Shown: positions 1 through 63,860 of the stretch, piece by piece
Numbering within the stretch: the stretch's first letter is position 1
How the letters are laid out: every line of letters starts with the position of its first letter
From: Botryllus schlosseri
Taxonomy: Eukaryota
NCBI GenBank assembly: GCA_051294905.1
Contig: CM119372.1
Span: 4,590,001 to 4,654,000, forward strand
Direction: 5' to 3'
DNA length: 64,000 nt
Translations under genes and position numbers: made by a program
Notes under the pieces: model-generated
What the model was told of the DNA's origin: nothing
Database searches by the model: none
Seen by the model: the letters and a program-made list of their open reading frames with translations, nothing else

Positions 1-1171
1 CAGCAATTAGGCATGATCTAGCTCTCCAAGTCTACAGTGTACTACGGTTGTAGCACTAATGGAGTGGCGGCACGACTCTGTAGACGCGTTTCCTCGCTGT
101 GGAAACTGCATCGACCCTTCCATATATCGGAACTTACTCAATGAGCATATGCCGTGATAGGAATCATAATGGTTTTCCCAACAGGAAACATCCCCAGGGT
201 TATGAAACATGATATTTCGACAACAGCTGCGATATTGGGTACACGAGCGCTTGGGATATGCTTCTGATTTGTGCAGCGATTTACGCATAAAGACTGCGTC
301 CTAAACAGCTATGACACTATGATTATACATAGCGTGTCGAGTAGTAAGTGTCGCGGAATCAATTGAGCATATTTCCGGGCGCTGGGTATTCGAAGGTACG
401 GCCAGTCTTCAAGCCTTCGAATAGGCGTGCTGGTGACTACGTCGAGACGGCGCTCTTCAGCAATACCTTGTGTTTTCGTTGATCTTTTAAAAACAGCGCA
501 TCCGTTCAGGTCTACGTAGTTATGCCGTATTGAGACTGTGCAGTGTGCACAGTCGGAAGCGAACTGCGAGACGTGATGCTCAGCCGGCTTCGATCGGATT
601 TCGATGCTTTGTGAATATGTTAATTTGGAATGGATTTGTTACGCTGGGAACAAATAGCGACCGTTGGCATCACCAATCGCCGGCCATTGTGCCTTGGTGT
701 AGTGGAGTGAATGAGTAACAATAGGTATCTCAAGATTTGAAGAGCTTTCGTTGAAGGCAGAGTGTTCGGTACACAATACATCGGCGAGCAAGATGGATTC
801 TTGTGTAGTCTGCAAGGCTCGGCTCGTGATATCGAGGTTCAAGGCGTGATTGAAATGCGCCGACCGGGTATAGATGTTAGCATGTTGAATTTAACGTCGA
901 CCTCGTAAAAGCGTCAGCACTTAGTGTGAAATATGTCGGCGTCAAGGTAGATTTGTAAGACATGCAGAAAGTTCTCTCTTAGATAAGTCGAGCGGTAGTT
1001 GAATTAGACTTTGAATTATTGCTTCACAGGTATTTTTTTCGAAATTAGACTAGAATTAGAGTTATAGCTGCTCAGTTTTGTAAAAATTAGATTAGAATTA
1101 GAATTACTGAAACGAAAATTTGGACATCAAACATTTCATGACACGTCTACCTCAATTATTTCGATTCAGGC

Positions 1172-4100
1172 ATGCTTAGAAGAAAAGTGCGCATCGCTCT
1201 AAAGCGTCTAGCTTGCGTTGCGTTAGTTTGTAAGTTTCTGCTGTCGTCCGGAATATTTGACGAGGTCTTGTCTTACCTGAACAATATACACAGCGCGCAA
1301 GATTTCATACTGGATAGCCCTACCGAGGGACGCGATGGAATTGCGCACGGCGCCTCTAGAAAGCGACTGCTCGAGTCGCTAAACCCCGAGACTTGCGCCG
1401 ATGTGCCCAAGCGACTGGTCGGGAAAGTGTCTCACGCTAAAGACCCGCCTGATATGAGAATAACCGAGCTTGTTAATAATGAAGTGACGGACGGTTCTTA
1501 CGAGCCCGGAGACTGTAAATCGCGCTGTCGCGTGGCTATTATAGTGCCTATACGCGGGCGTGAAAAAAACCTCCGTCATATGCTGGCTCATATGCACCCG
1601 ATTTGGCAGCGGCAAGAGCTGAGCTACACTGTGTTCACGATCACCCAAGCGGGAACGCGTACTTTCAATAAAGCAAAGCTGATGAACGCCGGTTTCAAAG
1701 AAGCTAGATCGTGTACGAAACTACGTTATTCTGTATTGGTACAGTCATCGACGACAGATCGCTATACCGGTGTCTATTACGTCACACAGCGCGTGATTGT
1801 GTCATGCTGTGGACGACCGAAAGTTCTCAGCTGTTCCAAATTGTATCATTTAGATTTATAGCTACACAGTATTGTCCAAAATATTCTTAATAATCCAAAT
1901 ATCGAATTCGCAAAACTTGGGAATTCAATTAAATTCCTAGTCGAAAATAAATACAACAAACAGAGCTCATTCCCAAAAGCAGATTCAACAACTGAAAAAT
2001 TTCCAGCTTTTCAAGATTAGATTATAATTAGTGTTATAGCTGCACAGCTTTTTTCCAAATTTGACTAGAATTAGACTTGTTGAATTCGCAAAAAACTTGG
2101 ACGTTTCGCGCCGTACGGTTGGCGGAAAACCATAAATTCGATTAGAAGTAAAATTGAAGCATAGAAAAATTTCACAAATTAGATTCGATCTTGGTCGCGG
2201 GCAATTTTGCTTTAATTAGAGAAGTTGAATTCTAGTTGTAACAGACTGGCGGCCGTTCACATGTTTCGTCGGTTGTATTATTAATGATGCTGACGCACTA
2301 TCGGCAAACATGGAAAGTGACCTCTCTCTTGTCTCCGTCGATGATTTTTGAAAGGTATTCATTCTTTTCGTAATGCGTCCCTGTCCACAGTACAGGAGTT
2401 AAGTTAAACCAAGGCTACTCAGCGTTCGACCGCGGTACAAATGCGAATATTTCCAACGCAGAATCCGGACCTTATCCGTCTTAGCATATGCTGAGTTTTT
2501 TTTAATGTAACCAAATCTAATATCGTTGATGTGCTAAAAGAATGGCCTGCTTACAGCTGCGAGTCAGCGTTTTCGATTCACGAACTTTGGAGAGAATAGA
2601 TTTCGCGTCTGTACGACAAGTGAGAACATTCGCCACTCCCACCGACTCGCTCGCAACACCTTCTTAGAACCAAGACGGAAATAACCATCAAAATGTCAAT
2701 TCACGCACTAGCTAAGTATCCAACTAACAGAACAATAAATTGAATAATATATTCATATTGAAATAAACCGGAATATTTTCGGCAGACACTCGTCCGTAAC
2801 TCGGGATTTGAAAGGACATTGTGTATCAATATTCGTACACAGTGTTCTTTCCAATTCTCTACTGGGTTCATGACGATTACCCCTGACGAGTGTCAGCCGA
2901 AAATATTCGGGCTTATTTCATTATGAATTTATTATTCAATTGTATATTGAAGTCCTGCACCTCCGAGAGCTCTTTAGAACGATAAATACATTTCGCTTAA
3001 TGGATAATACCGCTTTACCCGAATTGGTTTATAGTTATTACATTTGTACGGCTGTAATGAGAGTTATAACGGTCCTACGCAGATTTTAAACTTTTGTAAC
3101 TTGACCTTTGTTAAAAGTAGTTGAGTACCCTTTGTTTTCAGACTGTCTCGTTATTAAATGATTGCTTCCTGCTTAATACCACCGTCATCCAATTACACGG
3201 GCTTGATCATATTCCCTATTGCAGACGGTCGGTATGACTGCTTCGTATTTCACGACGTGGACGCTCTGCTCGAGGACGACCGTTGTTTGTACTGGTGCGA
3301 TCAACAGAACCCGCGGCATTTGTGCGCGTACGCGGATGTCTTCAATTATCGTGAAGTTTGGTATTTTTCTGCGTGCCGGCGCCCGGGAGGTGAGCTGGCT
3401 TCCAATGTACGAGCTCAAATCGGTTTATCGTAAGATTCCGATGAATGAAATGACAGTTGAAGCAATATTTCAATGAAACACCCACCTTGGCCACGTATAT
3501 AGACGCGTCTAATTCATTGAATTAGAAGTAACAGACAAGCGATAAAAATGAAGTAACATCTGTACGTGTGCGAAATTGATGTCAGACAGAGTTGGGCAAA
3601 TATTGCTGATTTTCCAAATTAGTATTGTAACTACACATTTTTTCAAATTAGATTCGAATTAGCCAGAAATTCAACAAAAATCAAGTTCAATTCATATCAT
3701 ATTAGAATATAAAATAGAATTGCGAATGTACCCAAAGCTTGGCTCGCTCCGCGCTATATACATACAGCGCTCCTGTGGCGTTTTCAGTAATGACCAGAAA
3801 TTTTAGCAACAAAGTTTTTTCCGCGTTATACGTTACCATTAGAATTATAGCCACACGGTTTTTTGGATCTTAACTGGATTTACTGAATTCGCAAAAGAAA
3901 TAACGGAAATCGAGTTCGGTTCGTATCAAATCTGAGTTAAATCTTGCTAGTTTCGCACTATACAGTTTTCCTGTAGCATTTTCCGGAAAACCACAAATTA
4001 GGTTGGAATTGAAATTTTTAGCATAGAAATTTTTCACGTATTAGATTAGAATTAGAATTGGAGCAAAGCAACATTTCACAAATAAGATAAGAATAAGATT

Positions 4101-7100
4101 GCATGCATTTCCCTATAATCAGGTAATTATACAGTTGCCCGAATCTGTATGATCCTACCCAAGTGCGCCAGCCTAGTCAGCACGACGTTTGCGTTCCCTA
4201 TTCAGCTGTATAACCGCTCGGCTCTTCGAGATAGTCAATATTTGCACTGCATCATTGCCAGAACTCTTCAGCCAGATCAAGCTGTTCGGCGGGGTGACTA
4301 TGTTTACCGAAGAACAGTTTCGAAGGGTGAACGGCTTTTCAAATTATTATTGGGGCTGGGGCGGCGAAGACGACGATATGTATAACAGATTAAGAAATAA
4401 AGGTGAGTTCTAGTGTGCTACATTCAGTATCAGTATGGTTGCTGAAACTTAACTCGGTAAAATTGTTAGGTTAACTACAAAACGCGCTGCATACCAAAAA
4501 TCTGCTCAATTCCAACTTGTAACAGCGAAGCCACATGACTAAAAAATGATTTCTTTTCTCAAATTTCACTTCCGACCCCATGAACTTGTTGAGTTGTCTA
4601 AAAATACGATTGTCAACAAATTTGGCTCAATTCCAACCAGTAGAAGCGAAGTTATGGGAACACTAAATTATGGATTTGAAAATCACGGTCACAAAACTTT
4701 TTATTATAGAACTACCCACCGTAAATATTATTATTTCAAATCCAAAATTTTCAACATCAATAACTTAGCTCCTACCGAGTGTAATTTGGCCAAATTTTGT
4801 ATGCTTGTCTGATTTTATCAGTTTTGTGATTTGTAATATGTGTCCTCTTTTCGGATCCCAAATTATGGTAACCCATGTAGTAGTAATACTGCTTTTGAGA
4901 AGCTTCGTGGAGGTACAGACCTTCAATATACAATTGAATGTTATATTCATATTGAAATAAACCGGGATATGTTCGGCCGACGTTCGTCAGGGACTAGTAG
5001 AGAATTGGAAAGGAAATTGTACATCAACAATCGTGCCGCCAAATATCACGTCTCCAAATTTCGAATAATAGGCGGAAAGAACATTACGTATTTTTACGGC
5101 ATGCACACCGACTCATGACAAACGTACACACGATCTGTGCATATGCATATGAGTGTATGATGTGCGCATGCCGCTGGACCAGGAAGCTGCAGATATAGCT
5201 TTTAAAGCGGGGAAGTCATGAATACCAATATTACTAATCAGTAGGCCAAGTTTTTGTTGTAGTCAAATCCAACGAAAGTTGCATTTGTTTTTCACAAAAG
5301 TTACACTACAAAGTTGCATTTATGGACAAGTTCCTGGATAATATGAGGGTATGAGATACATGAAATCTATCCGTATCCAAGGCACTGTAGCAAAACTCAG
5401 TGTTTGCGACTTCAACAAAATCGATAGCCTGAAAAGATTGACCCAGCTAATGACCCCGAAATATAATTTTCGGCGGTCTAGCCGGAATATACGTCAAATC
5501 GGAAAGGACCTCAAATTTAAGCGACAGTGAAATAATCAAGCGATCTATTTACATGTAGTGTCAAATATATCCAGTAAAAAGTCATATGCATGAAAAATCA
5601 AAAAAAATCAGGCAAAAATTTACATGAAAAATCGGAAAAAGTTGCATGAAATATCGATAAAGTTGAAAAAAAAACAGTCTGAAAAAATGTAGAAAAGTTG
5701 CACTATAGGATTCCTTCAAACAGCTTAAAACACCATACTACATAATTTCCGAGTATTTAGGAAGCTGTCGGAAGCTGTACAAAAAGTTGCAAAAGTTGCA
5801 AAAACTTGCCCTAGAGCAGTGGTTCCCAACCTTTTTGTCTTCATTCCCCACTTCAGATTTATTCCGAGCCTTCATTCCCCACCAGGACCATAACAGCACT
5901 TTGTCATCCCCACCAAAAAACGTTGGTCTTGGGCCCCCAGAACCACCTCAGCCCCGCTGAGCCTGTACGCTTTTTCCTGCAACTTATCAGCTACATGGGG
6001 TCTACTGTTTAGTGCGTCACCATATTTCGACTGAACGCGCGAAGCGCGAAAAATTTATATAATTCGTGTTTGAATCAGCCAATATGATCGGGAATTGCAT
6101 TTATTTTGGTCTCAATTTTTTATCCCCGCTCTGCTCACGTAATCAGATTTGCCGGAAGAGTTGAGTGAGGTGTGTTGGAAAAAGTAGGACCCTAAATAAC
6201 AATTGAACATCTTCGGGAAGACCCGTTGGTTTGGTACATTGACTTCGTTACAGTGTGCTATTTCGTGATCTCCTATATATGCTATGTCAAAAGATGTGGA
6301 AATCGCCAAAACCAAAAGGCATACACGATTTCAAATTGGTATCGCTTTACTGGTAAATTTTTCCCTGCGGGATGGCATTTGTCGTGTGGGGTTCAGGTCG
6401 CCAGGACAGGAACATTTGGCGTCAGCAATTTAGCCAATTAAAACCTATATGTATATTGCATATACATCGAAGTTTTGGGTCACCACAAGGGCATTCCTTC
6501 TCGGCCTCGGTCTTCTCGCTGCTGATCGTTTCGGCACACTTCTCGGAGTTGCATGTTACATGGCGTATAACTTCATATGCCTTGGCGCGTCGTGGTGCAG
6601 TAATGGCCGACGGCGAAGTCGCCATTTCTATAAATTATACGTATTTTCGTGGGGAAATGTACCCAATAATCAGATATTCGGCAATAACAAATAGCGGGGG
6701 GGGGGGTGCGGCAGTTACGGTCCTGTTCCCCACTACCCAGCACTTTTGTCATCACAGAGCAGCTATTTGCTGGTTTAACTACACAAGACACACAGCCATG
6801 CCAGCACGCAAGACAATCGCGAATAACTGCAAAATAAAACGTATTGTTAACCGATACCAGTAACGCTCAAAATTTTGCGAAAGCGTTATTTCACGTCAAA
6901 CTATAGTCGTTCCGGACGCGTTTGTGACGCCATGATTGGCCATCCAGCGTTAAAAATGAGGTTTTGTGAACAACACGCAATATAATTTTCGATACATGTA
7001 TTCCAGAGCAGTTAACTGGTAACGGTAATTGCGCAAAAGTCTCTGTGAATATGTAGACTGACCTCTATATAATTTTGAACAAATACGTCTATTCCCCACC

Positions 7101-12049: not shown

Positions 12050-12630
12050 AAGGAGTTCGTGTACCATCTTAAAATAGTACATTCAAGCGCTCTCTTAACT
12101 GAGATCTCATTTCATGCTGGTGACGTCATAGTTTGTGATACGATTGTTGGTAAACAATGTTCTTTCCAATTCTTCACTAGAAGCTGACGATCACCCCTTT
12201 CGAGTGCCAGCTGAGAATATTCGGGATCATTTCAATATATATGTACTATTCAATTGTATATTGAAGTTCTGTACCTCCAAGAAGCTCTTCAAATATTTCC
12301 TGTATAGATTTTAAAATTACCCGTTTTCTCGTCCGATACTATAAATTTTGTGAGTTGTAAAACTTTCCTCTTTTCCTGTTCTCGAAATATGGTAACCCTA
12401 CTAATGCTTCATGATGAGTCAAGCCCGCCCGAGAGCCAAAAGCTTGCTTGCTGAAGTGTAACTCAGAGGTTTTATTTAGTAATATAATATTTTTTCGGGT
12501 CTACTTCAATATGAATATACCATTCAGAAGTTCTTCTCAATCCTCGCCTAGCTGCTGACGATCACCCTTGACGAGCGTCAGCCGAAAATATTCGGGTATA
12601 TTTCAATATGAATATACTGTTTAATTGTAA
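12050..12630 (+). mobile_element. Two Penelope-like pLTR fragments
   Basis: Family sequence at ~12050-12295 (hammerhead degenerate) and ~12530-12630. Other solo fragments at ~4890-5065 (-), 7230-7330 (-), 25290-25330, 38690-38740, 43315-43445, 55405-55590 and 60715-60845. Confidence 0.65.
12554..12597 (+). ncRNA. Minimal hammerhead motif, C3U variant
   Basis: ACCC-TTGACGA-G-CGTCAGC-C-GAAA-ATAT-TC-GGGT. Confidence 0.6.
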
Positions 12631-18933: not shown

Positions 18934-18977
18934 ACCCGAATATTTTCGGCTGACACTCGTCAGGGGTAATCGTCAGC
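18934..18977 (-). ncRNA. Minimal hammerhead motif, intact
   Basis: Reverse complement reads GCTGACG-ATT-ACCC-CTGACGA-G-TGTCAGC-C-GAAA-ATAT-TC-GGGT. Confidence 0.78.
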
Positions 18978-19228
18978 AAGTAGTAGAGAATTCAAAAGAA
19001 CAGCGTATATCAACAATCGTAACACAAAATATGACGTCACCAGCAAGGAATGTCGAATACGAGTTTTTATTAAAATACACCAGCCAAGGCTGTGTCAACA
19101 AAAAGAGTTCGTGTATCATCTAAAAATAGTACATTAAACGCTCTCGTATTCGACATTCCGTGCTGGTGACGTCATATTTTGTGTTACGATTGTTGATATA
19201 CGCTGTTCTTTTGAATTCTCTACTAGTT

Positions 19229-19272
19229 GCTGACGATTACCCCTGACGAGTGTCAGCCGAAAATATTCGGGT
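19229..19272 (+). ncRNA. Minimal hammerhead motif, intact
   Basis: GCTGACG(19229-35)-ATT-ACCC-CTGACGA(19243-49)-G-TGTCAGC-C-GAAA(19259-62)-ATAT-TC(19268)-GGGT. Confidence 0.78.
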
Positions 19273-22200
19273 TCATTTCTATATGAAGATACTATTCAAT
19301 TGAAAATAAATAATAAAAAAATTTAAAATTTTCTGTTCACCCTATGAAAGTGTTAGGCTGTTTATAGAAACGATGCTCACCAAATTTGGTTCAATTCCAA
19401 CCAGTGGAAGCGGAGTTATTGCCGTCGAAAAATTTGGAATTTGAATAAAATAGTATTTACGGTGACCGATTCTTCGTTTATTTATTTCAATTGTGCTCAC
19501 CGTAGATACTATTTTATTCAAATCCAAATTTTTCGACGGCCATAACTCCGCTTCCACTGGTTGGAATTGAGCCAAATTTGGTGAGCATCATTTTTATAGA
19601 CAACCTAACACTTTCATGGGGTGAACAGAAAATTTTTAAATGTTTTAGTTATTTATTTTTATAAAATAAATAGACACTTTCTTCTCCTGTAGCAATGCGG
19701 CTCCTGGTTGGAATTGAACCAAATTTGGTGTGTAGGCTTAAATTAGGTAACCTAACAATTTTATGAAGCAGCCAGTACGATTTGAGAAAAAAGGTCATTT
19801 TTGAAGACCTCTAGTACAGTGCAGTACAGTGGGAAACGAGCCAAGCTCGCTGTACAGACATTTCCCATTCTCGTGCATATTAGAATTTGATACGAACCGA
19901 ACTTCATTCAGTGTCCTAGTTTTCGCGAATTCAGTAATTCTAGTCATATTTGCAAAAATTACTGTGTAGCTATAATTCTAGTCAAATTTGGAGCAAACTG
20001 TGTAGCTGTAGTTCTAATTTTAATCTGATTTTGAAAAGCTAAAAATTTCTAATTGTCTAGTCTGGTACCATCATCGCAGCTCTTCATTTCATTCCCCGTG
20101 TTCGCGCTACACTTCAAAGTCCGACCATCGCGCAATGCCGTGTATAAGGCGAAGTCTGTTATTTATTTTTATAGCCATGATCACACCTCTACTCTTCGTA
20201 CTTATAATATAACGTGATGTCGGTACTGTACTCTGTTGTGTTTTTGATATGCGAGTTGCTTTTTTTCGTTGCTTCGTGAGAGTTGCGTTTTTTTTTACAG
20301 AATAGAAAATTGTTTCGTATATATGTTCGTGACTGGTTGTTGGTTAGGGTGCATGCTCGTCAGCTTTTTACGGTTGGTGTTAGGTATGAATGTATCTACT
20401 GTCTCTGTACGACAAAAGAAAATTTCATGAGAGTTATAACGGGCCTAAGCAAGTTTTAATCTTTAGCAACAGGACCTTTGCTAATAATAGTTGAGTAGAC
20501 TTGCGCTAGGGAATAGTGGCATTCGGCCAAAAACACACTAAAACGGCCCGTTAACGTAAGCAACGCAATATTATACCTGTGGCACTGTGTGAATAAATTG
20601 ACTGAGAACAGATGCATAGCATACGAAAGCATTTTACCGTAAACGTAAAATGTATTTAAATCATCTCGAAAATCAACACTGCTGGAATCATACTGACCAA
20701 TTCGCTATCGGCAGTACCGTATTCAAATTGCGAAATACATACTCGGACAACGTTAAGTTACACGAAAGCGGATGCGTGAGTGAGAACGCCTCTTTGGCGT
20801 GAGAATACTTCGCACACTCTGCGTAAATGTATTGCAACAACTGTACAACATACAAAAGTCGTGTGTAGAGACAGACCCGGCAGCACAGACATATTAAAAC
20901 ATCTCGAAAACCAATATCAACTCGCCAACGCTTATTGCCGATACATCGTACTTGTAGGCCTACAGTGTATTGTACCGGCGCGGTAGATAGATAACCGGAA
21001 CATTTTACTTTCTACAGTAGGTGTATTACCATAGTCGTTTTCAGTGCTGCAAACGACTATGGTATAACATCGAAAGCAATAGCCCACACGAAAGTCCGGC
21101 AATTGCTGCCTAATGCAACACAGTCTTCTGCACATGGTACCATTAGTCATTTTATCGCGTGCAAATTTGAAAAAGTGTCCTCATTTCAGATTTCCAAAAT
21201 ATGGTAACCCTACGATATACTGAGTATCCGATAAATATTTACCCGCGACAAGATAACAGAGAATTCCGAGCACCAGATTGTGTCGCATTGGACAGCATAT
21301 ACTATGCGCGACATTTACGTCATACCATAGCAATTTACAACGTAGTAGAAAACGTTGTGAATTGCTGATATGTCGTACACATGCATACAGATGAACTAAA
21401 TATTGTCATTTTAAATCTTATGTTTCACATATTGTCGGCCATGACTGAAATAATTTTTTTAAACAAGGCTCGGTTTTAACCATTCGTGAACCCGTGTTTA
21501 CACAACACAACAATATCTCATAACCATTGCAGCTGGAAATTCGCATATAGTTCACAGTGACCACATTTTACCATAACGTTATATTTCCCACTTGTTGAAA
21601 GCTTGTTAAAGAGCATGATAAAACGAACAAAAAATAACAATCTTTAAGGGATAGGCGTAAGGCAAATATCAACGTTGAATGAGTGCCTGGCGCTGTTGAG
21701 CGAATGTACGAGTCAAGTCGGTACAAAATACACACGACACTGCACAGTGCACAGTTATTGTTTCTCAAGGCATTAAACGCCTCAAATGACTCTTAAAAGA
21801 TCGACTTCCTTTATTGCTGTCGTGGAGTTGAATAGAGATATTAAACTTCGTGAGGTTTACGACAAATATATATGTGAACAAGACGCGTGCGAGATTGAGC
21901 TTTAGTTGCAATTCATTAAAACTGACGGGTCAAACACGACTCCGTCAATTTTACGAGTTGTAGAGTTTACTTTTTCGTCTAATGACAATGGAGAAGATAT
22001 TTGTTCTGGCCTTACGCCAGCAAACATGCAACCAAGTATAGCCCTCATCGAATCGAAAATTCTGCGTAAACGCATCCGATCTGCAAACCCGTGAACATAA
22101 CACGACAGCTATATCTCATTTAGAGCCGATATCGATAATTTGCACGTTCACCGATAACCCCGATATATGCAGCCGATATTTAAAAAATATAGCGTCTAGA

Positions 22201-28400: not shown

Positions 28401-31400
28401 ACTAGGGCTCTTCAAAAATGACTTTTTTTCTCAAATCGTACTGGCTACTTGACAAAATTGTTAGGTTACCTAATTTAAGCCTACACACAAAATTTGGTTC
28501 AATTCCAGCCATTAACCGCTTTGCTACAGGAGAAGAAAGTTTCTATTTATTATATAAAAATAAATAATAAAAAATTTGAAAATTTTCTGTTCACCCCATG
28601 AAAGTGTTAGACTGTCGATAGAAACGAGGCTCACCAAATTTGGTTCAATTCCAACCAGTGGAAGCGGAGTTATTGCCGTCGAAAAATTTGGATTTGATTA
28701 AAATAGTATTTACGGTGACCGATTCTTTGTTTATTTATTATAGTTGTGCGATTGTTCGACGATTGGAGTATTTGGTTGTATTAAGGTAAGCATCGTATTG
28801 TGAGGCGTGAGCCCTTGCGATGTGTTGACCCTTACATATTTAACCAGACTTTCCAATCACTCTCACACCCAGGACGAGTATGGCCGCCAGGCTTTCATAG
28901 TCCGAAACCGGGATCTGAAACCGCTTGACGGGGCAGTATCCCAGGCACAAGTATGGTAGCGGAGGGATATGCGGCCACTGACGCACCCCTCCAAAGCCTG
29001 CTTGTGCCAGCTCTTTGGAGCCAACAGGGCAGGGTTTTTTCGCCGGGTTCTCCGGTTTTTTCCCGCAAAACCCCTGTTGGTCGCACCGTATACCCGAAGA
29101 GTAAAATTAAGAAGAAAAAAGAAGACGAACCGTAGTAAACATGGGTTCTTCGTGTCCTTTTCGACACCTAGTAACCCTATTACCATCGGGGAGTGCCTAC
29201 AGCTGGGTGGAATATCTCAGCTGTAGTCACAACTATCCCCACGGGGGGAGGTTGGCTGTGGCCCCTCCAGACCCCTAAAAAAATGAGCATCGTTTCTATA
29301 GACATTAGACAGTCTAACACTTTCATGGGGTGAACAGAAAATTTTCAAATTTTTTATTATTAATTTTTATATAATAAATAGAAACCTTCTTCTCCTGTAG
29401 CAAAGCGGTTAATAGCTTGAATTGAACCAAATTTTGTGTGTAGGCTTAAATTAGGTAACCTAACAATTTTGTCAAGTATAGCCAGTACGATTTGAGAAAA
29501 AAAAAGTCATTTTTGAAGAGCCTTAGCGTGCATACAAGGACGCACCCAATATATGATATTTTCTTGTCTCGAGGAGGATTTGCTGACAGTCCGGATTACC
29601 CGCGATCATCTCGTCGCATTCAATGTCATTCATAAAGTAGCTCGGATGGATCAAAGGCAGTCGGACGTAGGACAAAATTTCAGCCAACTCGCGGGATCTG
29701 TAAGGCAGTAAAATAAAGCGTGCTGGAGTTGAAAATTTTCTGTGCGAATCCACAAGCGGGGCTATATGAAGGAGCTTCCTGCCTTACCGTGATTCGATAT
29801 CGTGTTGGATCCATCTTTTGACCGCTTCGTATACCACTTCCTCGCGCGGTACATTTATGGCGTCGTCCATGATATATTCGACGATCCGATGTTTTGGTAG
29901 CTCCATGAACTCTTCATGCTGTCACGAAAATAAAGCTCAATGGTACGGCACCTATCTTAAAGATAAACTCTGGAGATTGTGCTACGGCGTGCAGGCCCCC
30001 GTTTACATAATATATTCGTATCGACATAAACCTAAATATTTTCGGCTGACACCCGTCAGGGGTTAGATTTCATCTTCGAAATACGATAGTTGATATACAA
30101 TGTTCTTTCCAATTCTCTACCAGCTGCTGACGATTACCCCTGACGAGCGTCAGCCGAAATATTCGGGTTCACTTCAGTATGAATATATTATTCAATTGTG
30201 TATTGCAGTTCCGCAGTTCCAAAAAGCTCTTCAAATAAATTCTTCTATAGCAGTTTATGTATATAAGTGCCACTGTGATTATGGCTACGTGGGAAAAACC
30301 AAACAACGTTTGCAGGACAGTATAAAATAGCATGTCGCTAGATTAGAACACGCGCGTCACGCTCGGTGAAAGGCTTGATTCAGAACAAGCAAATGTCATA
30401 AAAGTCTGCCATTGGCAAACATTTGTTGGATAATCCTGTTTGCGCGAAAAATTATCGAGACGTGTTGTCGGTAGATGTCGTTCACACTTTCATTTGGGTG
30501 CCTTGAAGTCGACTTTTATCAAAATACGCCAACCAAATCTGTGCTTACAGAAGGAGTTGTGTTCCTTCTAAGAACAGCACATTGAGCTTAAGCGCTCTCT
30601 TCGCCCCGATTATTCGACATTTCATGCCTGAGTTGATATGCAATGTTCTTTGCAATTCTCTACAAGTTGCCGACGATGACCCCTGACGAGTGTCAGCCGG
30701 AAATATTCGGGTTCATTTCAATATGAATATACTGCACTACTGCAGTGTTCATTTGTAAATTCTTCCATGGTAAATCCGCATTTTCCAGAGTTCTAGCGTC
30801 ATCTAACGGAAAAGCTCACACTCACTCGGGTCACATCAGAAAACCGTTCCGTGATCATAACAGATGCCTTTCGGTGCAAATCGGCGAGCGAATGTGCCTC
30901 AGCGAAGTCTTTCATTCTTATGCAGTTACACGGGTCCAGCTGCGCTTCGAGGAAGCGGCTACAAGCCTCGGTAAGGGGATTGATCTGAAATAGATCGTAT
31001 ACAAGTGAGACATATAAATAATTTATCTATTTGAAGATGATATTTAAAAGTCAAACTTTTGGTGGCTATTGAACACAACGAACAGATCATCATCATTGGT
31101 ACGCTTGTAAATGAGAAATAACATTGAAATGGTGCGCACATTAGTCATAAATAGGTAAATATCGCATTCGTTTTTAGAAAGTATCTCATCAATATGTTTC
31201 AGGCCCCGGGGGCGGGAAAGTTATAAGACACATATGGAAGGTGGTATCCGAACTAAGAATTACGCCCACCATATGCTGTGAAATTCGACTGTACGACGCC
31301 GAAAGTCGTAATAGGGATAACTTAATTCGACCATTGGATAGTAAATTCAGACCAAAGTGAAAACAATCAGCGTTGCTACACTCAAATACCTACTTGAGTA

Positions 31401-32958
31401 CTCCGTAAAAGTACAAGTACTTTGTTACTGTTTATATACACATCGCATATATTGTCAATACTGACGACCGGAGCCTAAATTCGATGACTATTCTAGTGAC
31501 ATAGTTAATTGTGTGACTTGGTGTCATTTTCGAAATGATGTTATGGTCAGTTTCGAACCGAATGCGCGAACTTAAGTCTTCTGGCACGTTTTCAAGGCTG
31601 TTCATCGAATCCTATGATATCATTACTCTAAGTTTAGCTTCAGCGGTCAGTTGGCAGCAGATATAAACGACTATACACGAACGAAATAATCTCAAGAGTT
31701 GGGATATCGCTATAGCATAAAAGTGAGAGAGTTGTGGTCGGTCAATACACAGAGTGCTGGAAGTTTATCTAGGCTCCTCCTCGCCATCCCATCTATGTAT
31801 GCGGCGTCTTATAAAAGCCTAGAAGTTGGCCGTGCTACAAGCCGGCATCTACGGAATACAAATGAAGAAAATTGGCCTGGTGTAAATGGCCAATGACCAT
31901 AGTAGTTGACAAACACCATGAATACCACAAACAACAACACAGAGTACTCAGACTATCGACCAAGACAACAGCTGTGTGTGTGACCGAACATAACATTGCC
32001 AGTCTGATTGTAAGCTCTTCAAAGGCAAATACCTGAAACAGGTTGGACGCCTCTAGCAGCAATTGCACATTCGCGGCCGTTATTGTAACGGTAGAAGTGT
32101 ACAAATACCCCAGCAACAGTTCCATGATGCGGCCTCCCATCCCGTTGATTTGCACCAGCATTTCGCGGGACTCGCGATGGTCGTTGCAGAACATCGCGCG
32201 AAAATATTTGCTTTCTGTTGATTTCAAAACAATTCGTGTCACGCGTGAACTCGCGAACTCCATTACGTAACTACATCGTCCGCATACGCGGGTGTGTATT
32301 TAGCGGCCAAGACATGCTTTGTTATCGATATCACAAGGTCCGGGGAACATTATCTACACAAGCAAAGCAGTAGGAGACTTCTGGTTATCACGTGGATAGA
32401 TCAGATTTCAAAATATTGTTCTGTGGGAATGGCCTACTGTAAATATTCCTGCCTGAACAAACATCGGTCCATTAGGCTTGTAGAACCATGGATGCAACTA
32501 TGCAGGATGAAAACTTGAGAAGGACCATGATGTTGCGTCGCAAACTCGCAATAACTCGCTCGAGCTCTAGTCATAATGAATAAGTCGAAAACTTGATAGT
32601 TAGCCGCTCCCCGGCAACGCCCACGCGTGCCGCTGGTACTACGTAGAGTTCAGTGGACATTATGCAAGCGACTATCATGTCGCGCAAGACAAGTATGCTG
32701 CTGCGGCTATATACGCTTACCTGCAACAAGTACAGCTCTGTGGCACGGAAATTCGCGACCGTCAGCCGATAATATGACATCAGTGAAGGCGTTCTCGGCC
32801 CGAAGCTGGTTGAAGCACGATAAAACCGATGCAGCGTGCTTTTCGTTTTTGAATGTGAACTCGTTGTCTGGTCTTTGCGCTACGTCCATGGCTTGCTTTT
32901 TTATAACAGGCGGATTAACAGTCACAGACGAACTAGTCCTTCTTAAGCGTAGCGGCAT
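22464..32958 (-). CDS. KLHL24: Kelch-like protein 24-like (BTB-BACK-Kelch CUL3 adaptor), complete 11-exon CDS, 595 aa
   Basis: Minus-strand exons 32958-32721, 32214-32033, 30984-30826, 29918-29788, 29697-29546, 28205-27940, 26670-26528, 23350-23224, 23157-23049, 22977-22852 and 22618-22464. All are GT-AG and phase-consistent, totalling 1788 nt. Peptides YFRAMFCNDHRESREMLVQING, RTRPRRSTG, YTKAEYAV and HGCVTIHRF match vertebrate KLHL24 as I recall it; KLHL35 is the close paralog. Confidence 0.93.
23437..24005. mobile_element. Foldback MITE with CATAG termini (P-superfamily-like)
   Basis: The whole 569 bp is an imperfect palindrome (CATAGTGTCCTAAATGGTG ... CACCATTTAGGACACTATG). Flanks GTTTCAC / TTTTCAC suggest a ~7-bp TSD. 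The superfamily assignment is inference. Confidence 0.8.
24006..24503. repeat. Degenerate tandem repeat, ~4 units of 120-160 bp
   Basis: Units begin TTTC(A/G)CAGAATATGA at ~24007, 24126, 24257 and 24419. Confidence 0.75.
28403..29525. mobile_element. Palindromic hAT MITE (TAGGGCTCTTC family) with a foreign ~530-nt internal cassette
   Basis: Both termini present; TSD GCGTGCAC / GCGTGCAT (7 of 8 match); 28750-29283 replaces part of the right arm. Confidence 0.85.
30126..30168 (+). ncRNA. Minimal hammerhead motif, stem III one nt shorter
   Basis: ACCC-CTGACGA(30140-46)-G-CGTCAGC-C-GAAA-TAT-TC-GGGT. Confidence 0.55.
30669..30712 (+). ncRNA. Minimal hammerhead motif, variant (GGAAATATTC)
   Basis: ATGACCC-CTGACGA(30683-89)-G-TGTCAGC-C-GGAAATATTC-GGGTTCAT; one A>G change in the GAAA region. 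Confidence 0.45.
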
Positions 32959-59400: not shown

Positions 59401-62400
59401 AATATGACGTCACCAGCTTGAAATTTCAAACGGTGACGTCATATTTTGTGATACGATTGTTGATTGACAATGTTTTTTCCAATTCTCTACTAGTTGCTGA
59501 CAATTACCCTTGTCGAGTGTCAGCCGTAAATGTTCATGGCTATTTCAATATGAATATACTATTCAATTGTATATTGAAGTTTTGTACCTCCAAGAAGCTC
59601 TTCAAATAATCGACTTGTTGTTCATTTTCTGCAAACAAAATGAACACCGACAAGTTTTCTACCTGCGCTGCGGCGCATATGAGATATATACTTGACCGCC
59701 AACTTTGACAATCTCATTCCGATTATTTTCACAACGCAGGCAGTCAATTTCGGGAGCAAGGACCCGCAATTCATGAACGTATGCATGCAGCTCCTGCAGA
59801 ACTTGGATTATCCCAGGCTGCGGAAGAGGGTGGCGCAATTTCTACCCGAAGACGTATCGGTGCCAGTGGAATGGTACGATATCGTCTCATTTCTTCTTTA
59901 CTCCCGTATCTATCCGTGTCGAATTCTAGGGGTAATCTGTCGGGGTCGTGCGACGAGCAGAGCGATTGGATCACCGGTCCGGCCGCGATTAAGAGCCCGG
60001 TTTTGGATTCCAACCCGGGGGCCGGCGAGATCGGGATTGCGTCTTCGAGCGTGGCCAGATACCCGTCCTACGTGGTCACGTCTCACAGGGCCACGTTTCC
60101 GTCTCCGAGTCTGGCCGAGGCGTCCATGCAACTGGCGTCGTCGCCGTCGACTAACGAAGAATATGACGAAGGTAGGTTTCTGGCAGTGGGTAAAGTTTTT
60201 TGGGTTCAGATTCATAAGTCAATCTGACTTTTGTAATTTTGACTCGAGTCAAGTCGACTCATTGGTGATTCATCACCGAGTCAAGTCCAAGTAGGTGAGT
60301 AGAGGGTCGAGTCCGGGTCATGGTGTCGTGAATCGAGTCCTATAGTCCAAGTTATTGTATTCACTCTTCGGTTTTGAGTTCAATCCAATTCAACCTAATT
60401 CTTTCAACTCCGCTCAGGTGATACAGAAAGGCTCACATTCATGATACACTAATTTCCATAATTCTTAAAAGTTTCTGACTCTATTTTCCAAGTATCAGGA
60501 CTGATAGACGAAACACCAATCGTGCGGTGACTTCACTATTCTTCGAAGTTACAATGAAATGTATGTCTCGGCCGTCCTAGTCGCGAGTCATATGACTTGG
60601 TTCGAGTTTTTTCGAATTCGGTTATTCTAATTCTGATCTGGTTTGGACAAGCTTATAGTTTTACACTTGTTCATCTCTGGTGACGAAACCTTTGATTATT
60701 TGAATTTTCATGACCGTGACATATTTTGTGTTACGATTGTCGATTTACAATGTTCTTTCCAATTCTCTACCAGTCGCTGACGGTTACCCCTGACGAGTGT
60801 CGGCCGAAAATATACGGGCTCATTTCAATTTGAATATACTGCTCATTTGTGAATTTCGCAGAATTGAACAACATGCATCGAGATGGGATACTTCTGGGCG
60901 GATCGTGCGCGCACCCGCCTACCCCGCCCCCATCGTCGGACGACACCACTAATTTAACGGACGCCATTCAGGTAAGACTGACTCATGACTCTAGTACAAC
61001 GGTACGAATTATGTGGAAAGTTGAAATGTGCACGTTTTATGAAGTTGAAATATGCACGTTTTATGTGACCATGAAGATAATTTGGTATTTTTCAACCATA
61101 CGTATTTCAAGGCACTTTGTGGTGACAATGATGTATTTTGATCATGACCTCACAGTTACGTCATTTCCATTAGCGTGCGTAGTTGGGGTGTTCAAGTTTC
61201 ATCGGCTTGGTTGTCAAATTGTCGGGTTACCTAAAAAAAAACGTCGCACACCAAATTTGGCTCAATTCCAGCCGTTAGATGCCGAGGTCAGCCAGATTGA
61301 AATTTTGGTCATATTTGGAAATAGCAGTGTTATGGTGGCAAATTTAGTCACTACTCAACATGGCCAAAAATCGTATACCCTGAATGGGGCAGGGATGTTT
61401 TTCTACTGTGTGATTTGTATGCTACGTAAGACAAGTCAAGGTCTGTAGGCTTTTTCAGTGAAAAGTTGTATCGTAACTGTAATTCTCATTAGTAAATTTA
61501 CTCTTGGTGGCGAGGAGGGTATGATTTCAGTCTTTGAAAAAAAATATTCGTTTTGCGTCGCGGCATAATCAAATCCTGGGACTACTTTTTGCAGGTCAGC
61601 CTGTTTCGACCGATTCGCAGCGCCAGCCCCGGCGCGGATTACTCCAACGCGAGACCGCCCGTCTTGGACGGGCGTCACCGGGACATCTCGGCCGACGTCC
61701 CGCCGCCCCTGCCCGCCAAAGAAAAGAAAGCGGACCAGACAAAATCCGTTACAGACTCGACAGCGTCACCAAACGCGCGTCGCCAGCGGCCCACGCTGCT
61801 ACGCCTTAGGTCCGAAGTGTCCGCGTTTAGACAGACCACCTCTAACACCATGTCCAAAAAGGCCAGGACGCCGGATTCAGACGCCAGTTCGTCGTGTAGG
61901 GAACGTAGCAGCAGCAGAGAATCAGATTCGTCTTTGGGCAAAAATTCGGACCGGCGGCTCAGCGTTAAAGAGCTGGCCGAGAGCATAAACAGAAAACACA
62001 CCCGGCCCACCGGTCCCGTCCTCAAAAAAGACCCCAAAAATATCACGACACCGCAATCAAAAATGACCCCCGGCCCTGGTTTTGATCGTGACGAGACATT
62101 GTCAAGCACCCTGGACTCGCCCACAAAGCCCCCACCTTTACCGCCACCGCATACAAAGCCCCACCCGCCCGACCCAGACCCGGGGCAGAACCCGAAAAAG
62201 CCTCCGATGCTGCCATCAAAATACGAGAGTCACCCAATCAGCCGTAACATAGCCCGTCGGGGCACTATGGAGCGGTACAAAGAAAGGAAGAGGCTGGAAG
62301 GGTTCGCGAACCACCCGCAAACATTACATGAGGTGCGCACCCCGGACGAACCGCCGGAGGCGTGCCCCGACAAAAGTGCCCCGCCGTTAAATTTGTACAA

Positions 62401-63860
62401 TCGGTCGGCGGCTGAAATTTCGTCGAATAAAACTAGACTGCCGATGAGGGGGATATTGAAACACAGTGGTAGTGTGGAGGTGGGGCGGCGTCCGGCCCCT
62501 GTCCCGGCACGGCAAAAATCAGTCACAACTGATAGTGGTCATGCGTCGTCCAGCTCGATTGATTGTGTGTCAGATGATAAGGATAATTTTAACCCCGCTT
62601 TTAGCCCCGGTAAGTGCCCCGATGTGTTCCCGGGTCCGTATGACGATCACAGGTTAGAAGACGGGTATCCGTTAATACCACCCCCTTTACCACCGAGGCC
62701 ACAGCTTGAGTCCGGGTCCGACTCGGATTGTGTTGGTTCTGAAAAGCGTTTCGGTAACGCGAGGGACTCGTTAATCGACCACCATGGCGCGTACAGGGTC
62801 ACGTTTGGTAACGGGCAGGGCGCGAGGCCTATGCGTCCGAAACATTTGAAGCGCAATGCGAAATCGCCGACCCGCGACTCAAAACACAGTGTGATGTCAC
62901 CGACGGGCCCCCCTAAGACAGGCGTGACCCACGTTACAGAATCTGTCCCGTCTAAGGACGGGAAGGAGTCGTTGTTTTACGTGCGGACCGCGAGACAAGA
63001 TGAGGAAAAGTGAGTCGTAGGTTATTTTCTCTTGGGTGGTCATCGAATTTCCAATATAATCATTAGGGCTGTTCAAAAATAACTTTTATTTCACATTTTA
63101 GCAGCTCTTTGATAAAATTGTTAGGTTGGCTAAAAAATCGATTCAAACCAAATTCAGCTCGATTCCGAAGAGTAGAAGTGCAGCTATTAGAGTTGGAAAA
63201 TTTTGAATTTATTACGAAAAATCTTATTGAATTTGCAGCTATTAATTAGAGTTGGAAAATTTTGAATTTATTACGCAAAATCTTATTGAATTTTGCCGGC
63301 CAACCCATGAAATTGCCTACAGAAACGCTACAAAACAATTTTGACTCAATTCCGACCTGTAGAGGTGAAGATATTTGAGTTTTTCATTAATAATTCTAAG
63401 ATTGTCCTCAGTAAACAGTAAGTTTTCTACTCCAAAATTTTCAACTCCAGTAACTTCGCTTCGACTGGTTGGAAAGGAGTTAAATTTGCTGTACATCGTT
63501 TATTAGACAACTTTACAATTTCGTAGGGCGGAGTTATTTTCGAACGACCGTAAGCCACAATTGCAATTGCAAGCCTGAGAACCCTCGCGTCCGCTTTTTT
63601 GTTCTAGCCACGAATGCTTTTTTCATTTGCAGGCCGGGCACCAGCGCGCAAATGAAGCTGCGTACGTCGTCGGACCAGTCCGGAAGCCAATCGCAATCCA
63701 CCAGCGCCAACACGCCAGAGGTAATAGCAACAGCCGCATACTAAATCCGCGCGCACACCCTGAAAACATTTTTCAATTCAGAGCCAAGCGACTCTCGAAG
63801 ATCTGGAATCGGACACTTCTCAAGCCGACAAGACGCCAATCACTTTCAAATCGGAAATAG
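38439..63860 (+). CDS. MAP3K1: MAP kinase kinase kinase 1 (MEKK1), 5' portion; continues past window end
   Basis: Phase-consistent exons 38439-38585, 40961-41081, 41552-41734, 42511-42584, 42683-42760, 43705-43758, 44031-44204, 45121-45234, 45946-46059, 46122-46258, 50025-50146, 51173-51315, 52687-52838, 54642-54774, 54837-54958, 56081-56175, 58467-58614, 58678-58801, 59740-59873, 59930-60171, 60862-60971, 61595-63009, 63633-63720 and 63782-63860. MEKK1 hallmarks: [95 protein letters not shown] and TFKSEI. The first ~6 exons rest mainly on splice sites and phase, so they are less certain. Confidence 0.92.
38834..40301. mobile_element. Non-autonomous hAT element in MAP3K1 intron 1
   Basis: TIR CAGTGCTTTTCAAC / GTTGAAAATCACTG; exact 8-bp TSD CCATAGAC (38826-38833, 40302-40309). 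Confidence 0.88.
50541..51103. mobile_element. Palindromic hAT MITE, related TAGGGTTGTTCAAAAA subfamily
   Basis: Inverted arms; exact 8-bp TSD CTGTGCAG (50533-50540, 51104-51111). Confidence 0.9.
51894..52490. mobile_element. Older palindromic MITE, TAGGGTTGTTC subfamily
   Basis: TAGGGTTGTTCAAAAATAAC ... GTTATTTTTGAGCAACCCTA; no clear TSD. Related decayed copies at ~4430-4850, 25740-26022, 44483-44835, 46370-46805, 49330-49730 and 63064-63552. Confidence 0.75.
53831..54496. mobile_element. Full-length palindromic hAT MITE (TAGGGCTCTTC family)
   Basis: About 330-bp inverted arms; exact 8-bp TSD CTGTATAG (53823-53830, 54497-54504). Partial copies at ~26035-26443 and ~57705-58045. Confidence 0.92.
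56377..57628. mobile_element. Non-autonomous hAT (Charlie-like) element
   Basis: TIR CAGCGGTCGGGAACCT / AGGTTCCCGACCACTG; exact 8-bp TSD CTATATGC (56369-56376, 57629-57636); TATGGCTCTT subterminal repeats. Confidence 0.9.
59270..59607. mobile_element. Penelope-like inverted pLTR pair
   Basis: Near-perfect inverted arms centred at ~59425; same family as 18867-19302. Confidence 0.72.
59307..59350 (-). ncRNA. Minimal hammerhead motif, intact core, antisense in MAP3K1 intron
   Basis: Reverse complement reads GCTGACG-ATT-ACCC-CTGACGA-G-TGTCAGC-C-GAAA-ATAT-TC-GAGT, with one stem I mismatch. Confidence 0.65.

Follow-up and report, generated by a model that had tools for sequence, protein, structure and literature searches.

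The hammerhead motif and its repeat family

The window, which is the whole 64,000-nucleotide stretch of Botryllus schlosseri DNA analysed here, contains on its plus strand, at 19229-19272, a motif that reads GCTGACG-ATTACCC-CTGACGA-G-TGTCAGC-C-GAAA-ATAT-T-C/GGGT, where the slash marks the predicted cut (Table 1). Judged by this layout, the motif is a candidate minimal type I hammerhead. A CUGANGA box is followed by helix II and then by GAAA, and both boxes are nearly invariant in 120 aligned copies. Position 17 is C in the repeat family to which the motif belongs (family A) and U in the sister families B and M, as expected for a position that is H (not G). Furthermore, the 5' and 3' flanks close a stem I that is supported by covariation. 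Loop III is palindromic, as in the minimal hammerheads of Penelope-like elements (PLEs); family A has AAUAUU, whereas families B and M have AAGCUU.

Loop II can pair with the 5' arm GCTGACG over all seven positions, as the preliminary description had proposed, through six Watson-Crick pairs and a terminal G.U. The arm is also, as described there, a duplicate of the start of the core box, CTGACGA being present at 19230-19236 and again at 19243-19249; two such boxes, 14 nt apart, are found in families A and B3. The alternative hairpin CTGAC-GAGT-GTCAG between core and loop II is likewise present in the sequence. We could also verify that the copies at 12576 and 30148 have the loop CGTCAGC, and that the copy at 30669 is mismatched, its arm (30669-30675) being GCCGACG and leaving one C.A. 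The upstream CTGACGA was considered as the true core and rejected: it is not conserved, reading CUAACGU in subfamily B1, and neither a stem I nor a stem II can be fitted to it.

Table 1. Features of the hammerhead motif, its copies in the window and related repeats. Positions are those of the window unless a contig is named.
Feature	Position	Strand	Sequence	Basis or remark
Family A unit, copy bearing the motif	19185-19302	+		blastn, window against itself
5' arm	19229-19235	+	GCUGACG	sequence; homologous columns covary
Conserved pseudoknot strand (arm positions 1-6)	19229-19234	+		
Arm position 7	19235	+	G	possible extra G.U with loop position 1 in family A
Spacer, 7 nt	19236-19242	+	AUUACCC	sequence reading
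Stem I, 5' strand (3' part of spacer)	19239-19242	+	ACCC	stem I pairs covary across families
Catalytic box (C3-A9)	19243-19249	+	CUGACGA	nearly invariant in the 120-copy alignment
Stem II, 1 bp, G10.1 (19250) with C11.1 (19258)	19250-19258	+		G-C in 104/105 rows
Loop II, 7 nt	19251-19257	+	UGUCAGC	arm partner is loop positions 2-7
GAAA box	19259-19262	+	GAAA	sequence reading
Palindrome	19262-19267	+	AATATT	sequence reading
Helix III, A15.1-U16.1 only	19262/19267	+	around palindromic AUAU (19263-19266)	A-U in 100/105 rows
C17	19268	+	C	predicted cut between 19268 and 19269
Stem I, 3' strand	19269-19272	+	GGGU	4-bp stem I with ACCC; sequence, cross-family covariation
Mirror copy of the motif	18937-18977	-		arm 18971-18977, core 18957-18963, loop II 18949-18955
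Mirror copy, predicted cut	between 18938 and 18937	-		
Family A copy	12554-12593	+	loop CGUCAGC	7 Watson-Crick pairs with arm
Family A copy	30126-30165	+	loop CGUCAGC	
Family A copy	30669-30708	+	arm GCCGACG	one C.A mismatch
Subfamily B1			arm ACTAAC; loop II AGTTAGT	
Subfamilies B2, B7			arm ACTGAC; loop II A/G-GTCAGT	
Subfamilies B4, B5			arm ACTGGC; loop II A/G-GCCAGT	
Subfamily B5w			arm ACTGGC; loop II GGTCAGT	G.U intermediate
Subfamilies B3, B6			arm GCTGAC; loop II G/T-GTCAGC	
One inverted pair (B sample)			arm TCTGGC; loop II AGCCAGA	
One single copy (B sample)			arm ACTGGT; loop II AACCAGT	
Family M			arm TCTGACG; loop TGTCAGA	
B1 tandem motifs	G000:C1:22034530, 22037308, 22040086; C2:4939687, 4942465			
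CTGATGAG repeat, examples L096-L099	G000:C1:1478434, C1:7163025, C1:40180282, C3:3092543			

According to a self-comparison of the window by blastn, the repeat unit that carries the motif is only ~160 bp long. Its 20-mer core has 15 matches within three mismatches in the window, versus none in 100 shuffled sequences, and 10,407 matches within one mismatch in the genome (495.5 Mb, 219 contigs), versus none for the reversed control. Inverted head-to-head pairs are frequent in the family. Five are found in the window, with the minus copy on the left and the plus copy on the right. The pair 18944(-)/19243(+) flanks a palindrome at ~19007-19199 that consists of the 5' halves of the two repeats.

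A recognisable arm is present in 12 of the 15 window copies. Of these 12, nine pair fully with their loop over the seven positions, a further two show a single mismatch and the last shows two; the three arm-less copies are explained by 5' truncation or a 13-nt deletion. A flank-anchored pattern that is blind to both arm and loop retrieved 2,628 copies, and by an eye count the stretch from arm to loop is identical in ~62 of the first 100 listed. Family A is therefore very young, and private mutations in its copies are uninformative on RNA structure; a covariation test within the family is unusable because the copies are too uniform.

A 13-nt segment that includes the arm is missing from one family A copy in the window (4946-5014, minus strand) and from one B1 copy (L069:1679-1747, plus strand). 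In both, the upstream flank abuts the core. These two copies may represent deletions between two CTGA-like boxes, or else an arm-less ancestral form.

Sister families with other arm and loop sequences

A search for loops changed at positions 4 and 5 gave 67 matches versus 12 in the control, mostly decayed family A copies, and brought family B to light. Superfamily B is defined by the pattern CTGANGAG-N7-CGAAAAGCT, in which loop II is left free and the palindromic loop III is changed to AGCU, and has 1,014 matches in the same genome. The first 100 listed of these matches, 30 taken as loci and the rest as 131-nt regions, yielded 82 distinct copies. The B subfamilies differ in stem I, N7 and loop II, and in every one of them an equally spaced arm matches the loop. 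Most families have a spacer of 7 nt between arm and core; two variants have one of 8 nt.

Family M was found on metagenome contigs of another organism, with a scan pattern blind to arm and loop, and has different flanks. Arm and loop are fully paired in 33 of the 35 copies with enough upstream sequence, and the family M loop has no exact match in the Botryllus schlosseri genome. Both related families thus retain the complementarity that had been described for family A, despite arms and loops of other sequence.

A further search, with another base after CGAAA, gave 404 matches, the majority of them decayed copies of A and B. A recurrent repeat, CTGATGAG-GTGGACT-CGAAAT, is represented by at least eight copies among the first 100 listed and has conserved flanks. 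These flanks hold neither a stem I nor an arm, and the repeat was rejected as a hammerhead; it is probably a chance match to the core inside another repeat.

Covariation of the arm and loop II

For the covariation analysis, we aligned the 15 window copies with 23 flank-anchored family A copies and the 82 copies of superfamily B (120 copies, 105 distinct rows). The complete hammerhead with its pseudoknot has 79.3% of cells paired, compared with 25-41% for slid partners, and a covariation score of 0.324 versus 0.170 after shuffling, a score reached by none of 500 shuffles. Taken alone, the 6-bp knot has 87.8% of cells paired, compared with 6-34% after a shift of the partner by 1-3 columns. Five of its six pairs change on both sides, and its covariation score of 0.325 (shuffled, 0.195) is again reached in 0 of 500 shuffles. 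Arm position 1 and loop position 7 form A-U in 50 rows, G-C in 38, G.U in 5 and U-A in 1; arm position 4 and loop position 4 form G-C in 80 and A-U in 9; arm position 5 and loop position 3 form A-U in 75, G-C in 15 and G.U in 5. At the seventh position, the arm G and loop position 1 fail to pair in 70 of the 105 rows, so the conserved helix comprises 6 bp (arm positions 1-6 with loop positions 7-2).

All six arm/loop pairs are present in 65 of the 105 distinct rows from the animal's own genome. In a background set of 114 unrelated sequences from metagenome and viral contigs that fit the core pattern, six of six pairs occur in the same register only once. Three metagenome matches of the background set (L226, L276 and L174) have six of seven arm/loop pairs, G.U included, and no convincing stem I. 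Their pairing is probably due to chance, although each could be an unrelated pseudoknot hammerhead.

A second alignment holds 17 hand-picked representatives, namely the modal haplotypes, two low-copy variants and one family M copy. Here all 102 knot cells are paired and four of the six pairs change on both sides, with A-U in ten, G-C in five and U-A in two representatives for arm position 1 and loop position 7. Stem I also changes across the families, its pair 2.1/1.1 being C-G, A-U or G-C and its pair 2.4/1.4 A-U, G-C, U-A or G.U.

The compensatory changes are mostly transition pairs, for which G.U can serve as an intermediate; switches of transversion type are limited to U-A pairs, seen in family M and in one inverted pair. 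By inspection of the 17 representatives, rather than from a computed tree statistic, we infer at least six independent compensatory events, a small number given that the families are all related and that copies of one subfamily are not independent. Loop mutations found in single copies are mostly uncompensated, as expected for dead copies. Hand-picked odd loops, mostly private mutations of this kind, were kept outside the argument, except for those that belong to the 120-copy alignment through the first 100 listed. The single mismatches (27 GU versus 18 AC) are too weak to use.

The statement in the preliminary description that covariation is not shown therefore holds within the young family A, while the comparison of sister families reveals such covariation. 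These sequence comparisons support the view that the helix of arm and loop II behaves like one under selection in the RNA.

Probable association with Penelope-like elements

An open reading frame ends 180 nt upstream of one B1 motif. It matches the reverse transcriptase family RVT_1 with an E-value of 9e-7 (29.2 bits, cut-off 29.6) and GIY-YIG with an E-value of 0.004 (18 bits, cut-off 22.6), both just under the Pfam cut-offs, and in the Atlas it lies closest to clusters of animal RT/GIY-YIG proteins (score 0.98). Because this copy adjoins a reading frame with RT and GIY-YIG signals, we regard the sister family as probably Penelope-like. Among the matches listed, B1 motifs occur on one strand at a spacing of exactly 2,778 bp, three on C1 and two on C2; these arrays are probably tandem full-length Penelope-like units. 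No reading frame is linked to the window copies of family A, which is a relative with a short, non-coding unit of ~160 bp. The inverted head-to-head arrangement corresponds to an insertion form known from PLEs, as outlined in PMC4209133 and PMC8557442.

Rfam models and RNA reads

No Rfam family reaches its gathering threshold anywhere in the window, and no hammerhead is reported around the site at E-values up to 10. On a B4 copy, the model Hammerhead_1 (RF00163) scores 16.6 bits, below its gathering score of 34. The best weak match on B1 and B2 copies is RF03152, with 18.8 and 18.4 bits versus a gathering score of 56.3. Weak matches to WsnRNA46, mir-1263 and MIR8742 on both strands were rejected as hairpin look-alikes; they arise from the long near-perfect palindrome of the inverted pair.

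Raw RNA reads from three runs (3-6% of each) cover family A on both strands. The read depth is continuous across the predicted cut site of the left copy. In these portions of the three runs, no pile of molecule starts or ends is seen at either predicted cut site of the inverted pair, a result still compatible with cleavage, the data being ordinary RNA-seq over some ten thousand mostly dead copies.

Proposed fold of the ribozyme

We consider it likely that the motif at 19229 is a minimal type I hammerhead of a PLE lineage in which a pseudoknot takes the place of the hairpin helix II. Stem II would be closed by G10.1-C11.1 alone, with six of the seven loop II nucleotides paired to the 5' arm, which lies at a fixed 7 (rarely 8) nt upstream of the CUGANGA box. 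Stacked, presumably coaxially, on G10.1-C11.1, the 6-bp knot would give a helix II of ~7 bp, a length equal to that of the published hairpin helix of PLE hammerheads (PMC4209133). The arm had at first been proposed to supply a contact between stem I and loop II. The part of this proposal that stands is the pairing, which covaries like a selected RNA helix; the knot is more plausibly the body of helix II itself than a supplementary contact.

The 3' end of the arm would run into the 5' strand of stem I after the constant 7 (rarely 8) nt. This arm-core spacing of 7-8 nt equals the length of stem I in family B (7-8 bp), and for this reason the distal ends of helices I and II would be tied together, one helix both building stem II and tying it alongside stem I. 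Loop II position 1, which is variable and mostly unpaired, is likely the crossing strand and would pass over the deep groove as a single nucleotide. In H-type pseudoknots, one nucleotide can span the deep groove over 6-7 bp.

Since helix III consists of 1 bp with a palindromic loop, catalysis probably needs a dimer of two copies, as for other PLE hammerheads; the palindromic loop III of families A, B and M likewise speaks for dimers. The ribozyme may cleave, and cleavage may trim the retroelement RNA.

In such a dimer, the arm could instead pair in trans with loop II of the partner molecule, as a second contact beside the palindromic helix III. The 1-bp helix III with its palindromic AUAU or AGCU, found in all families, is a hallmark of dimer-acting PLE hammerheads (PMC4209133) and would suit this arrangement, and covariation cannot separate cis from trans pairing. 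However, the fixed arm-core spacing, matching stem I of family B, is what cis geometry predicts, and the tested pseudoknot precedents outlined in PMC3088659 are cis; we regard pairing in trans as very improbable. The arm/loop complementarity might also have no function in RNA at all, being a leftover of the CTGACGA duplication or a DNA inverted repeat kept by templated repair or by a DNA-binding factor. The double CTGACGA box of families A and B3, the two copies that lack the 13-nt arm-bearing segment (4971, minus strand, in the window, and L069, plus strand) and the absence of RNA ends at the predicted cut site in the reads would all agree with this. Yet even where the arm has lost its resemblance to the core (CUAAC, CUGGC, UCUGAC), the loop still matches it, both at subfamily level and in another organism, and the G.U states, both in the B5w intermediate and at the helix end, fit pairing of RNA and not of DNA. 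Moreover, a ribozyme deprived of the arm would have no helix II, and conservation or covariation is nevertheless seen in the core, G10.1-C11.1, A15.1-U16.1 and stem I. A repeat devoid of RNA function is, in our estimate, quite unlikely.

The preliminary description further saw in the arm a decoy within a bistable switch, in which loop II would alternate between an inhibitory hairpin with the core CUGAC and the arm, thereby gating cleavage; the arm would then serve mainly to pull loop II off the core. Both pairings are possible in the 19229 copy and their energies are close (-7.8 kcal/mol for arm:loop, -5.4 for the core:loop hairpin). A nested folding model gives them ensemble shares of ~0.38 and ~0.57, respectively, but these shares swing from 0 to 0.99 among near-identical representatives, because such a model cannot hold stem I and the knot together, and were not used as evidence. 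Across the sample the hairpin can pair in 89% of cells, and as an isolated helix the arm pairing is the more stable in all 17 representatives, by 1.7 to 7.2 kcal/mol. In contrast to the arm helix, the hairpin between CUGAN and loop positions 2-6 shows no covariation beyond shuffles (214 of 500 reach its score), since the core is not free to change. Opposite the invariant loop G2, N7 varies among C, U and A, and the two are unpaired in 23 rows. In B4 and B5, where the A6 and N7 pairs are broken, three hairpin pairs are left (-1.2 to -1.5 kcal/mol), yet the arm is perfect; the B4 change of loop U3 to C breaks the pair with core A6 and is matched by a change of arm A5 to G. The likeness of the arm to the core box is itself lost, with CUAAC in B1 and CUGGC in B4. 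Loop II therefore tracks the arm, whose helix is the more stable and in which loop changes are compensated, and not the core. The hairpin potential seems to be a side effect of the arm's origin as a duplicate of the core box. The switch is without support overall and we think it unlikely, although it may operate in family A.

Relation to known hammerheads

The loop of the RAGATH-1 hammerhead reportedly forms a pseudoknot. The consensus of RAGATH-1 (RF03152) shares with the present motif a layout of 5-bp stem I, CUGAUGAG, 1-bp stem II, 7-nt loop and CGAAA, and differs from it in a long helix III and an upstream hairpin, both of which are absent in the family A and B elements.

Pseudoknots that hold stems I and II together, including examples with a 1-bp stem II, were described and tested by Perreault et al. 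in 2011, where about 40% of hammerheads are judged to use such a knot (PMC3088659). As in the knots outlined there, the end of stem II forms Watson-Crick pairs with a strand attached to stem I, which places the stems in parallel, and in the present families this pairing is backed by covariation. The examples described in that account are mostly bacterial or phage type II hammerheads (loop I with a 3' tail), with a stable helix III and acting as monomers, whereas the present ribozyme is type I, with a 5' tail that abuts stem I, a 1-bp palindromic helix III and an animal retroelement as host.

With the PLE hammerheads of Cervera and de la Pena (2014; PMC4209133), our families have in common the type I topology, a palindromic helix III of 0-1 bp and a short helix I. 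Further shared features are the thousands of copies per animal genome, a probable location in PLE flanking repeats, and pairs on opposite strands 100-700 bp apart, with a dimer as the likely active form. In the published consensus, helix II is a hairpin of 7-8 bp, and A9 and G10.1 are separated by an additional nucleotide (PMC4209133). In families A and B neither feature is found: A9 directly precedes G10.1, and stem II is 1 bp with a 7-nt loop.

Two other groups offer partial parallels. In the permuted type-SGC hammerheads, as summarised in PMC10085705, the stem I and stem II sides are likewise joined by a very short linker, which may help to bring the stems together; type-SGC is a non-circular permutation of the three core blocks, whereas the order here is the classical one of type I. 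Animal non-LTR retrozymes and SINE-like hammerhead repeats resemble family A in being short (~160 bp), non-coding units with a type I hammerhead, dispersed and in short tandems and probably mobilised by PLEs (PMC7229834; bioRxiv 10.64898/2026.07.22.740005). Retrozymes differ in that their hammerheads are canonical, with loop-loop contacts and a helix II of 4 bp (PMC7229834), in contrast to the pseudoknot and frequent inverted pairs of family A.

PLE hammerheads rank among the most numerous ribozyme motifs of animal genomes. An article by Lunse, Weinberg and Breaker in RNA Biol reportedly belongs to the work on the minimal PLE forms. Neither titles nor abstracts yielded a description of a PLE hammerhead with a pseudoknot helix II; that article or the supplements of PMC4209133 and PMC8557442 could contain one. 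The word 'pseudoknot' has no occurrence in PMC4209133, PMC6155905 or PMC7229834. The pseudoknot principle and PLE hammerheads are thus both known, and their combination is, as far as we could find, apparently undescribed.

PLE hammerheads have been regarded as nearly inactive in vitro and devoid of tertiary contacts (PMC4209133, PMC6155905), a review stating that they lack the characteristic tertiary interactions (PMC6155905). The present alignments suggest a more elaborate fold in at least one PLE lineage, with helix II supplied by a covariation-supported pseudoknot, and an arm-inclusive construct is now defined for activity assays. Such copies may escape descriptors and Rfam models in which a hairpin helix II is required, and the window copy indeed has no Rfam match. 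In practice, thousands of repeats could be annotated better; conceptually the advance is modest, as the principle dates from 2011. Among PLE sequences, 'HHR_core' motifs (CUGANGA...GAAA) that fit no stem/loop descriptor are outlined in PMC8557442, and an arm-built helix II might explain these cases. It is a speculative extension, and one we would not expect to hold, that many 'minimal' animal PLE cores are pseudoknotted ribozymes, with a loop that toggles between arm (on) and core (off) in the lineage with a duplicated CUGAC. If true, the toggle would be a built-in gate on retroelement RNA processing that depends on dimer formation and folding.

Other features of the window and of the repeat arrays

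Hammerhead repeats are dense in the window, with 15 in 64 kb versus ~21 per Mb genome-wide, and exons of host genes lie amid them. One encodes a Glyco_transf_7N domain (1142-1861, plus strand, E-value 3.7e-29) and another a BTB/POZ domain (31835-32299, minus strand, E-value 2.2e-11). Just downstream of the family A copy at 60790, an open frame of 491 amino acids (61538-63013, plus strand) matches no Pfam family at E-values up to 0.01.

Elsewhere in the genome, among the matches listed, the loop variant TGTCAGT occurs in six copies on the same strand of C2 (G000:C2:34054563-34165870). Their spacing is roughly 21.3-24.8 kb, with four intervals of about 21.7 kb, which suggests a large tandem segmental repeat with one family A copy per unit.
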